Assembly: GCA_037481835.1 (NCBI GenBank)
Contig: JBBFKW010000003.1
Coordinates: 96,001 to 160,000 of the forward strand
Direction: 5' to 3'
DNA: 64,000 nt
Source: Desulfosoma sp.
GTDB lineage: Bacteria > Desulfobacterota > Syntrophobacteria > Syntrophobacterales > DSM-9756
Positions 140 to 2,189 of the stretch are shown here, piece by piece. The notes under the pieces are model-generated. The model did no database searches, had not been told where the DNA came from, and worked only from the letters and a program-made list of their open reading frames with translations. Position 1 is the first letter of the stretch. The number at the start of each line of letters is the position of its first letter. The position numbers and the translations under genes were made by a program.

Positions 140-466
140 ATGGAATGTCCTGCGCTCAGTCGGGTTTACGTCATCTTCAAACGGACCAGGTGCTGCATCC
201 GCATCTACACCGATCTGGACCGGGACGCCTTTCAAGCAGCTCTGGAAGAGTCCCTGGACAAAAAGAAAAGCCTTTTCCTTCACGTCTATCAGCCCAACGG
301 CAACGGGTTTGTTCGAAGCCACACGACGGTGACACCTTACGAAGTCCTGGTGGACTGCGTTTTCCATGTCCAGGAGGTATCGAAAAACGGCGACGATCCC
401 TGCACGGAAAAGGGGAAAGAAGCTCGTTTTCTGGAGCGGCTCTTTCGCGAGCACGGCCTCGCTTAG
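140..466 (+). CDS. hypothetical protein (~108 aa)
   Basis: Part of ORF 44..466. ATG at 140 is preceded by GAGG; globular-looking sequence. Start uncertain. Confidence 0.55.
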   Translation: MECPALSRVYVIFKRTRCCIRIYTDLDRDAFQAALEESLDKKKSLFLHVYQPNGNGFVRSHTTVTPYEVLVDCVFHVQEVSKNGDDPCTEKGKEARFLERLFREHGLA

Positions 467-717
467 GAACGGACCGAAGGACGGTTTGGCATAGCGGGCG
501 CGCTCACGATCTTTTGCGAGCGTTTTGCAGGGGTTTCGGCCTGGATGTCGGGGAAAACCGCTCCCACGGGTAGCAGATCTCGGGCAAGCTTTTTGCGGCG
601 GATGCATATCTCGGCCCGACTGCGCCGGCGGGGCGGCTTTTCACGTTCCGAAGGAAATATTGTTCCAGCCCCAGCGCCTTCGGAACCTTCCACGTTCCTT
701 TCGGCACAGGATGGCTC

Positions 718-1005
718 ATGAGCGCTCAAGAAGACGAAGGCGGCTTGAGGGAACGGATTGCGGCCCTGGAAAGGGAACGCGACCTCCTGCAGGAGCGCGT
801 CAAGGAATTGGAAGAGGCTCTCCAGGGGTGCTTGAGCCGGTCCCGGCACTGACTGGGGTGCGGCTTTGCCGACTGGTGGCTGGACGCCACACGGGTGCTC
901 ACCGAAAAGACCGGCGCGTTTCCCTTCAAGAAACCATCCTGCCCCGCGGTCGCTGAGATAGAAGAAGAAGGAAGTGAGCCCCGCCCGCCGGAGGAGCCTT
1001 CATGA
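718..1005 (+). CDS. candidate selenoprotein, 95 aa, N-terminal coiled coil plus UxxC motif (Sec at TGA 850-852)
   Basis: AGGA RBS 6 nt before ATG 718. The frame stays open for 50 codons after TGA 850-852 (H-U-L-G-C-G-F-A-D-W-W) and ends at TGA 1003-1005, overlapping ATG 1002 of the next gene. SECIS-like hairpin at 876-890. Confidence 0.65.
853..900 (+). promoter_or_regulatory. putative bacterial SECIS element
   Basis: Stem GTGGC/GCCAC (876-890) with loop TGGAC starting 28 nt after the UGA and G at loop position 2. Extendable by CTG/CGG and GGGTGC/GTGCTC pairing. Folded by eye. Confidence 0.45.
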
Positions 1006-2189
1006 AGGATCCGGAGCCGGCGTTCGGCTTTTTCATCGACGGAAAGCCCGTTGACGACGGCGCCCTGTCCCGTGCGCTCCCCATTGGGCTATCGGACGAT
1101 GCCCCGAAGATCGCCTACGCCCACTACTTCCAGGCATTGGCCGAAGCCCTGAGGGCAAGGAATTTCGAGCCCATTCGCCGAAGTCTCCAGGTGCTGACCG
1201 GAGAATCTTTCTTGCCCGATCGGATTCGCGACGTAAGAATCGACAGCGTGAAACACGGCGCGCTCTACCACGTGGCCAAGGTGACGGTCGACGTCAGCGG
1301 GCGCTCCTTTTCCATGGCCATGAATTCGGCCGTGCATCCCAAGCGCCAAGCGGCTCTCGAGCGCGAATGGACGACGCTGGAAAGCCTTTCAAAAACGGCA
1401 ACGGCGCCGTACGTGCCCAGAGGACTGTATCTGGGCGAAGGCTTGTGGCACGGCGCCTCCCGGGAAGCCAGTCCCTTTCGGTTTTTTCTCGCCCGGTGGT
1501 TCGACGGCTTTCATGAATGGCACCTGGAAAAAGGGCAGGGCGATCGTGTCGAAACCGTGAGGGTCTGGGACGGCTCAGCCGCGGGCCGCGAGCTCACCGA
1601 CGCGGAATCGTCGCAGCTCATGGAACAGGCGGCCTACATCCTCACTCTGGCGCTGGACAGGCAGGATTTCCGCCACATTCACCCATGGCACCACGCGGCG
1701 GGAGATTTTGTCGTCACGGTAGAAGGGCCCGCGGTCGCCGTGCGACTCATCGCCGCCAGAAACCTCAGGGTCCTGGTGCCTCCGGGGTCGGAACCCCATG
1801 AGCGCCTTTCCGCCGTGGCCGCCTTCTTTTTTGCCCTGACCTTTCGCCTCCGCCTGGATCGGGACCGCGGGACGGGCGATCTGGTCTGGGCCCCCGATCG
1901 CTGGCTTCCCGCCGTGGCAAGGGGCTTTCTCCGAGGCTGGACCGACGGGGCGCCGCCCCATGAGGCTTTTTCGACCGAGGACGTTCGGGCGGCCCTTGGG
2001 GCCTTCGGTGCCTCGGATTGGGAAACCGTAGGGGACCTTCTCGCGGACGATCTCATCGTGGACCCTGACGAAGAGCTCCTGGTGACCAGGCTTATCCCGG
2101 ATCATGCCCGCGATCTGCACCGCAGCCTTCGCTGGGATGACCTTTCGAGGTCGGTTGCGAAACAAAGCGTCGACGTCTTGAACTCTTAA
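1002..2189 (+). CDS. conserved-looking hypothetical protein, possible atypical kinase-like fold
   Basis: 395-aa ORF with GGAGGAG RBS. Motifs KHGALYH, EREW..L..L, VPR.Y and WHHAAGDFVV resemble a kinase-like arrangement (inference). Confidence 0.7.
   Translation: MKDPEPAFGFFIDGKPVDDGALSRALPIGLSDDAPKIAYAHYFQALAEALRARNFEPIRRSLQVLTGESFLPDRIRDVRIDSVKHGALYHVAKVTVDVSGRSFSMAMNSAVHPKRQAALEREWTTLESLSKTATAPYVPRGLYLGEGLWHGASREASPFRFFLARWFDGFHEWHLEKGQGDRVETVRVWDGSAAGRELTDAESSQLMEQAAYILTLALDRQDFRHIHPWHHAAGDFVVTVEGPAVAVRLIAARNLRVLVPPGSEPHERLSAVAAFFFALTFRLRLDRDRGTGDLVWAPDRWLPAVARGFLRGWTDGAPPHEAFSTEDVRAALGAFGASDWETVGDLLADDLIVDPDEELLVTRLIPDHARDLHRSLRWDDLSRSVAKQSVDVLNS

Follow-up and report, generated by a model that had tools for sequence, protein, structure and literature searches.

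Insertion of selenocysteine (Sec) directed by SelB and the SECIS element is an established mechanism in bacteria. In most bacterial selenoproteins known so far, Sec sits on an enzyme fold or one like thioredoxin, and abundant Cys homologues led to their discovery. Helical proteins also bear on the locus described here. AhpD/CMD proteins are helical bundles. Proteins of the MerR family (SoxR, CueR, NmlR) form antiparallel dimers through a long helix that leads into a Cys-rich loop. Heptad Leu residues together with attractive g-e' pairs are the pattern of a parallel two-stranded zipper, known from bZIP proteins.

Here we describe a candidate selenoprotein gene of a Desulfosoma sp., found in a window (the whole stretch of DNA analysed) of 64,000 nucleotides. 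Its product is in all likelihood a selenoprotein with a leucine zipper, belonging to an uncatalogued family. With the bacterial UxxC selenoproteins (Trx, Grx, DsrE-like, TsoX, CYCXC and others; PMC13188914) the candidate has in common the in-frame UGA, a SECIS adjacent on its 3' side, the UxxC motif, a Sec-rich anaerobic host and a truncated annotation. In contrast to them, the model of the candidate is all-helical with no thioredoxin-type fold, no Trx-clan model of Pfam or NCBIfam matches it, and it has an extra invariant Cys seven residues ahead of Sec. The table of that catalogue of 119 families lists no family of zipper type (PMC13188914). AhpD/CMD-like selenoproteins (CxxU) resemble the candidate in being all-helical and in having the motif at a helix start, but the motif of the candidate is reversed (UxxC), no PF02627/TIGR01926-type match was obtained and there is a single long zipper helix. 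The likeness to the MerR family lies in the long dimerisation-type helix that ends in Cys/Sec residues; however, the candidate starts with this helix and has no winged HTH/DNA-binding domain, a coiled-coil hit to NmlR stayed below threshold, and the distribution of charges suggests that the zipper is parallel. With bZIP zippers the candidate shares attractive g-e' pairs, Leu at d, and a positions that are polar or beta-branched, and the bZIP and HALZ models of Pfam gave weak hits to the family (E 0.02-0.08), but no basic DNA-binding region precedes the zipper and its last two d positions are Cys and Sec.

The candidate gene and its reading frame

The features of the locus are listed in Table 1. 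From its ATG, the frame has 44 sense codons, a TGA, 50 further sense codons and a second TGA at 1003-1005, and translation with TGA as U gives a product with C38, U45, C48 and C75. The AGGA at 708-711, the ATG at 718, the TGA at 850-852 and the frame open up to 1003-1005, all given in the original prediction, were reproduced from the sequence, and the gene had rightly been described there as overlooked by the ORF track, as the ORF list of the window holds a 44-aa ORF (718-852) alone. After residue 45, the predicted product of this allele includes the peptide VLTEKTGAFPFK. Homologues are 68-96 aa long and have purine-rich AGGA/GGAG-type sites ahead of their ATG.

The last codons of the tail contain the Shine-Dalgarno sequence GGAGGAG (990-996) of the next gene, a 395-aa ORF, whose ATG at 1002 is overlapped by the final TGA. 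This ATGA overlap had been noticed before and is shared by 9 of 15 loci; in the others the frame ends 8-9 nt (four loci) or 30 nt (one locus) ahead of the next start, or has no such neighbour (one locus). Thus, the end of the read-through ORF lies -4 to +9 nt from the start of the next gene in 13 of the 15 loci, with tails differing in length as well as sequence. A scan for promoters and terminators gave results at chance level.

Table 1. Features of the candidate selenoprotein locus (positions in the window)
Feature	Position	Strand	Details	Basis
Partner gene, 108 aa, unannotated	140..466	+	Invariant C19, C73, C88	Beta-beta-alpha-beta-beta-beta core and C-terminal helix (model)
Ribosome-binding site	708..714	+	AGGATGG	Read from sequence
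Candidate selenoprotein CDS	718..1005	+	95 aa, U45	Homologue comparison
Predicted leucine zipper, residues 10-45	745..852	+	d = L10, L17, L24, L31, C38, U45; a = I14, R21, V28, L35, S42	22 N-terminal parts
In-frame TGA (putative Sec45) and U-L-G-C motif	850..861	+		TGA in 16/16 homologous blocks
Predicted second helix, residues 49-64	862..909	+	GFADWWLDATRVL	Conservation and structure model; partly co-constrained by the overlapping SECIS
SECIS-like hairpin within CDS	873..894	+	Upper stem 876-880/886-890; loop UGGAC 881-885	Folding and bacterial model
Variable, predicted-disordered tail	910..1002	+		pLDDT <50 at residues 68-90; conservation lost across genera
Downstream gene, 395 aa, no known family	1002..2189	+	Invariant W-HH-x-x-GD	Alignment of 13 sequences

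Conservation across the in-frame TGA

Each of the 16 distinct homologous blocks had TGA at codon 45; for C48, 15 of them used TGC and one TGT. According to the original prediction, TAA or TAG at this codon would speak against Sec and TGG or CGA would indicate a nonsense mutation; none of the four was seen in the 16 homologues with DNA. Neighbouring stops served as controls. The stop of the upstream gene was TAG in six, TGA in six and TAA in three of 15 loci, and the final stop of the candidate gene itself was TGA in 11 and TAG in four of 15.

Conservation on either side of the TGA, which had also been proposed as support, was found in the homologues. As pairwise counts on close kin of one family, which are not independent and carry no phylogenetic test, pN/pS values were 0.22 over 28 codons 5' of the TGA, 0.26 over 18 codons 3' of it in the same frame, and 0.09 over the first eight of the latter, which lie ahead of the hairpin. 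By the same counts, pN/pS 3' of the TGA was 1.2-2.8 in four of the five other frames and 0.43 in the mirror antisense frame, and each of the five is interrupted by stops in some homologues. Contigs from public runs (four runs, eight records, six of them across the codon) showed no letter variation at 850-852. Sec recoding at codon 45 is computationally well supported and appears highly likely, the recoding mechanism itself being an ordinary, textbook one.

Homologues with Cys at this codon had been suggested as a further check, and one database protein, P0002, does read through with Cys at the Sec position (H-C-P-G-C). Its first 44 residues are those of the truncated P0031; it comes from a single contig and carries L46P. 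Aligned with a homologue (L023), its tail scores 52 in the +1 frame as against 16 in frame, so that the record carries a frameshift. Of the eight sense codons that differ from TGA by a single change, two encode Cys, and an error would therefore yield Cys about one quarter of the time. This leaves two readings of P0002, an error or an allele in decay that has exchanged Sec for Cys, and we give it little weight as evidence.

SECIS-like hairpin and Sec machinery of the host

The hairpin GTGGC-TGGAC-GCCAC of the original prediction is borne out in its position, in the G at loop position 2 and in its spacing, the loop beginning 28 nt after the TGA, but it loses to a competing fold when folding starts from the UGA. 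Folded alone, 872-896 gave -11.3 kcal/mol (z -2.4), and 4 of 200 shuffles were as stable. In folds begun at the UGA another structure was preferred, which was no better than shuffles (850-910, z -0.73; 853-900, z -0.46); a ribosome on the UGA would presumably cover the 5' arm of this competing structure. The bacterial SECIS model (PMC13188914) has a stem of 4-16 bp, a loop of 3-9 nt with a G as its first or second nucleotide, a spacing of 16-37 nt and an MFE of -7.5 kcal/mol or below. The candidate agrees with the four published constraints, having a loop of 5 nt, a stem of 5 bp, G at position 2, a spacing of 28 and an energy of -11.3 kcal/mol. The GCC codon of Ala57 is invariant at its fourfold-degenerate site in 16/16 blocks. 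A search of Rfam gave no fitting family (best E 0.51).

For a reference within the genome, peptides around 37379 TGAs were aligned to its own long ORFs. Cys stood opposite 102 of these TGAs, mostly in repeats and shadow frames. Among those listed, eleven recognisable selenoproteins were chosen by eye, which we take from their motifs to be four HdrA, two MvhD, two FdhA, a CCG-domain protein, a CoA-disulfide reductase and a DsrE-like protein, and SelD brought the set to 12. We then applied a rule of GG at loop position 1-2, a loop of 3-6 nt, a stem of at least 5 bp and a distance of 16-37 nt past the TGA. The candidate and 12/12 reference genes have such a hairpin, the latter figure being partly by construction because the rule was written once the candidate and the references had been seen. 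As 2328 of the 37379 background TGAs (6.2%) and 5.4% of TAA/TAG codons are likewise followed by one, the hairpin would be weak evidence if taken alone. Its loop TGGAC is identical in one MvhD-type gene of the same genome, and the spacing of 28 falls slightly outside the 18-27 of the reference genes. In homologues, hairpins passed in 14/14 with a stem of at least 4 bp and in 9/14 with at least 5 bp.

The presence of selA, selB, selC and selD in the genome, another check that had been proposed, was confirmed. Two selB-like genes above cut-off were found in the host genome, which measures 3.63 Mb and is 99% complete, together with selA, selD, itself with one in-frame TGA, and a tRNA-SeC(tca), that is, tRNA-Sec(UCA). 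In the host family, selA was above cut-off in 9/9 genomes. At least 12 recognisable selenoprotein genes, all with GG-loop hairpins, lie on contigs C5, C9, C11, C12, C13 and C16. The second selB-like gene is located near a tRNA-Cys(GCA) that scores above the tRNA-Sec cut-off (L003, 1441-3405 and 4527-4618, both on the minus strand; G000:C21), with a Cys-type MvhD-like ORF between the two. This pair fits the selB*/selC* system described for Syntrophobacterales (PMC7609411). CRISPR-like arrays of short, regularly spaced repeats were also seen on contigs C20 and C14 of the host genome (G000).

Predicted leucine zipper and Cys/Sec positions

The original prediction had not placed C38 and U45 in a zipper register, nor had it linked the gene to a co-distributed upstream gene; both are new here. 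In 22 distinct N-terminal parts, the d positions were occupied by L10 in 12, by L17 in 20, and by L24, L31 and C38 in all 22; L35, an a position, was also found in 22/22, and U45 falls on a heptad d. The g-e' pairs were attractive at 27-32 in all 22 sequences, at 20-25 in 17 and at 13-18 in 11, and repulsive in none. Among the further Cys residues pointed out earlier, C38 proved invariant, as did C48 of the motif, whereas C75 is unconserved in homologues. H44 is replaced by Y in 2/22 sequences.

The heptad Leu at d, the hydrophobic or polar residues at a and the attractive g-e' pairs argue for a parallel zipper dimer, which we regard as probable, and the heptad and charge pattern of the N-terminal ~35 residues would make a homodimer most likely. 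C38 and U45 fall on the next two d positions of the zipper, which in a parallel dimer would place C38/C38' and U45/U45' close to its axis. The structure model (nine sequences, mean pLDDT 69) has a helix at 3-43, a turn at 44-48, a helix at 49-64, a disordered tail and no strand, with pLDDT of 86-96 over residues 11-40 and of 63 over 41-50. Since the model helix ends at 43 and confidence drops in this part, U45 may leave the zipper register.

Neighbouring genes

The 108-aa gene was present in exactly the same 8/96 genomes of the order as the candidate selenoprotein gene, and lay 31-251 nt upstream of it in 15/15 loci. The model of its product (pLDDT 88) matched Rv3208A (7rur_A) with Z 8.2 and rmsd 1.9 over 64 residues, a Z near 8 being also typical of common arrangements; the next match had Z 4.7. 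The two proteins share the core given in Table 1, but the 108-aa protein is only 8% identical, has an extra C-terminal helix and three invariant Cys, and a common fold shows no function. Structure 7RUR is titled a hexadecamer, and Rv3208A is a DUF3107 protein. The 108-aa family has no Pfam match, with 0/11 members matching DUF3107, and searches with the protein gave weak rows in Foldseek, some of them Sm proteins, and no usable match in the ESM Atlas. The term DUF3107 occurs in a preprint that proposes an actinobacterial Hfq (10.1101/026195). In one metagenome contig (L044, ~2077-2301) the copy of the 108-aa gene looks frameshifted, possibly by an assembly error.

The 395-aa gene is probably co-transcribed with the selenoprotein gene. 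It matched in 40/251 genomes of the phylum, mostly without the candidate ORF, and was not found beside one copy of the selenoprotein gene (L041), so it is no dedicated partner. A search of the sequence ahead of 26 distant copies of the 395-aa gene (1.5-kb flanks, some shorter) gave no homologue of the candidate. No match was obtained in Pfam, NCBIfam or PDB (Pfam and PDB with the 13-sequence alignment). The family has an invariant K-x-G motif besides W-HH-x-x-GD, and the two would fit a kinase-like fold. A long inverted repeat follows the gene at ~2265-2350 of the window, with similar copies on many contigs, and resembles a REP-like mobile repeat. A divergent cluster upstream of the window shows conserved synteny with the two-gene module in the majority of long loci; it comprises a poly-gamma-glutamate hydrolase, a GT28-type glycosyltransferase, an FtsX permease, an ABC ATPase and a 1594-aa M28-peptidase/FtsX ORF (L055, 864-10066). 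A DUF169 gene lies between this cluster and the module in some loci and is missing in L041 and L049.

Proposed function and alternative readings

In the mechanism that we propose, SelB and Sec-tRNA(UCA) would bind the hairpin downstream of codon 45, at its spacing of 28 nt, and Sec would be inserted there. The N-terminal zipper would pair two chains in parallel, with C48 at the start of the second helix, capping it. U45 would be oxidised or attacked first and then resolved by C48, by C38 or by U45' of the partner chain, and may exchange with the three-Cys protein encoded directly upstream. From these predicted features we tentatively favour a selenol/thiol redox switch or relay in which the dimer acts together with the upstream protein, although this reading falls somewhat short of an even chance. 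It is preferred because UxxC motifs are mostly redox motifs (PMC13188914) and the putative His ligand varies. The main rival, which we hold to be less probable, is a soft-metal or Fe-S site (Zn, Cu, Hg or 2Fe-2S) formed by C38, U45 and C48, with or without H44, of two chains, the protein being a sensor or chaperone comparable to MerR without the DNA-binding domain. Three invariant Cys/Sec residues in a stretch of 11, where a helix of the dimerisation type ends, would suit such a site, and several selenoproteins of the catalogue bind metal or 2Fe-2S (PMC13188914). Against it stand the replacement of H44 by Y in some sequences, the failure of MerR/SoxR models to match beyond the coiled-coil NmlR hit (E 0.025; 14.6 bits, the cut-off being 175) and the lack of recognisable metal-handling or Fe-S genes among the scanned neighbours. 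The abutment of the ORF end on the next start, together with the variable tail, would fit a selenium-sensing leader, in which translation would run through to the ORF end, and start anew on the 395-aa gene, only upon Sec insertion, the peptide being secondary. This is improbable, as the strong conservation of the zipper, C38 and C48 implies a protein function, and the 395-aa gene has its own Shine-Dalgarno sequence, occurs mostly without the ORF and was not found at L041. Sec-dependent translational coupling to the 395-aa gene is possible.

That the TGA is a true stop after a 44-aa coiled-coil peptide, the conservation beyond it stemming from an overlapping gene or from an element of non-coding RNA, is very improbable. 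Gene callers do end the protein there in 18 of 19 true database hits, but most changes 3' of the TGA are silent when read in this frame, other frames contain stops, the codon type is constant while neighbouring stops vary, and no Rfam family fits. It is hardly credible that the UGA encodes a different amino acid, either Trp or Cys delivered by a tRNA-Cys(UCA) of the selC* type, or that it arose by nonsense mutation as the gene decayed. Some selC* tRNAs have a UCA anticodon (PMC7609411), and the second selB-like gene adjoins a tRNA-Sec-like tRNA-Cys; however, the anticodon of that tRNA-Cys is GCA and a canonical tRNA-SeC(tca) exists. The homologues showed neither TGG nor CGA, and decay is excluded by purifying selection on either side of the TGA across three genera. 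Returning to the favoured Sec-containing zipper, a more speculative and rather doubtful extension is a two-gene module of one sulfate-reducer family, in which two Sec residues would face each other on the zipper, either as a diselenide switch between the chains or as a metal site with two selenolates. The three-Cys protein, as a ring-forming relative in fold of Rv3208A, would read or reset it; selenium chemistry would thereby take place on a zipper in lieu of an enzyme fold, and translation of the 395-aa gene may also be linked to selenium supply.

Distribution and novelty of the family

Within the order, 10/96 genomes matched, and true homologues were confined to the host genome and 7/8 other genomes of its family, that is, 8/96; none was found in the 87 other genomes of the order, and two of the ten matches were coiled-coil-only and lay in long ORFs. 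A sample of 401 genomes of the phylum gave no true homologue outside the host family; seven genomes matched, three of them weakly and without homology on inspection. Named homologous loci belong to Desulfosoma, Desulfacinum and Syntrophobacteraceae CG2_30_61_12. The copy in another genome of the host genus (G003) is identical in sequence to that of the Desulfosoma sp. record. A GTDB-wide pattern scan returned six loci, five of them true, and a metagenome scan 12 loci, of which 10 were true, while viral contigs held no homologue. G052/L028 (E 0.005), L029 and L030 were dropped as chance matches, and so were L042, L053 and L054.

Among 27 protein database hits with E up to 1, 19 were true; 18 of these end exactly before the TGA and P0002 alone reads through. 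The candidates in this search had 29-147 residues, longer fused forms being covered by the 50%-representative search alone, where none was shown. Database records of the family end at 41-69 aa, and the 45-aa 'hypothetical protein' WP_178371961.1 of Desulfacinum infernum is likewise truncated. Among 1.84 billion representatives, searching with a profile picked out 21 hits: four truncated family members, five unrelated coiled coils or repeats, and 12 that were judged from the table. P0029 (301 aa), a 'member' of the cluster of the truncated protein, is unrelated.

The original prediction had not recognised the family, and no known family matched it in our searches either. No Pfam or NCBIfam model (June 2026) reaches its cut-off, bar one coiled-coil-only Pfam hit in one homologue, and none of those among the 119 catalogued prokaryotic selenoprotein families that have Pfam or NCBIfam models matched. 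PHROGs (E 0.015) and PDB sequence searches gave coiled coils only, Foldseek gave 0 matches to the candidate model, and VIA-align found generic long helices only (best Z 6.2), which does not imply a novel fold. For P0002, the ESM Atlas gave unnamed clusters at 0.89-0.91. Tables of 119 (PMC13188914) and 87 (PMC9312934) families name no such protein, nor do the nine new families of deep-Sep (PMC12013277) or passages of Haft and Gwadz (10.1101/2022.07.06.499078) and PMC1976440. No literature linking selenium with Desulfacinum, Desulfosoma or the leucine zipper was found, in a search whose scope ended short of supplements (e.g. the deep-Sep and Haft and Gwadz candidate lists) and subscription journals. 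The candidate very probably represents a selenoprotein family that has not been described before, is restricted to one clade and has an unusual scaffold, the zipper.

New bacterial selenoprotein families are regularly reported, and this one is narrow and its function inferred; its points of interest are the zipper scaffold and the near-absence of Cys homologues. As the family is essentially without Cys homologues, restricted to one clade and truncated in databases, searches based on Cys/TGA pairs would miss it, which suggests that more small, clade-restricted selenoproteins are hidden likewise. If true, the alignment of Cys and Sec with the register of a zipper would offer a simple natural scaffold for studying diselenide or metal-selenolate chemistry. 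Cultured type strains of the clade are Desulfacinum infernum DSM 9756 and D. hydrothermale DSM 13146.
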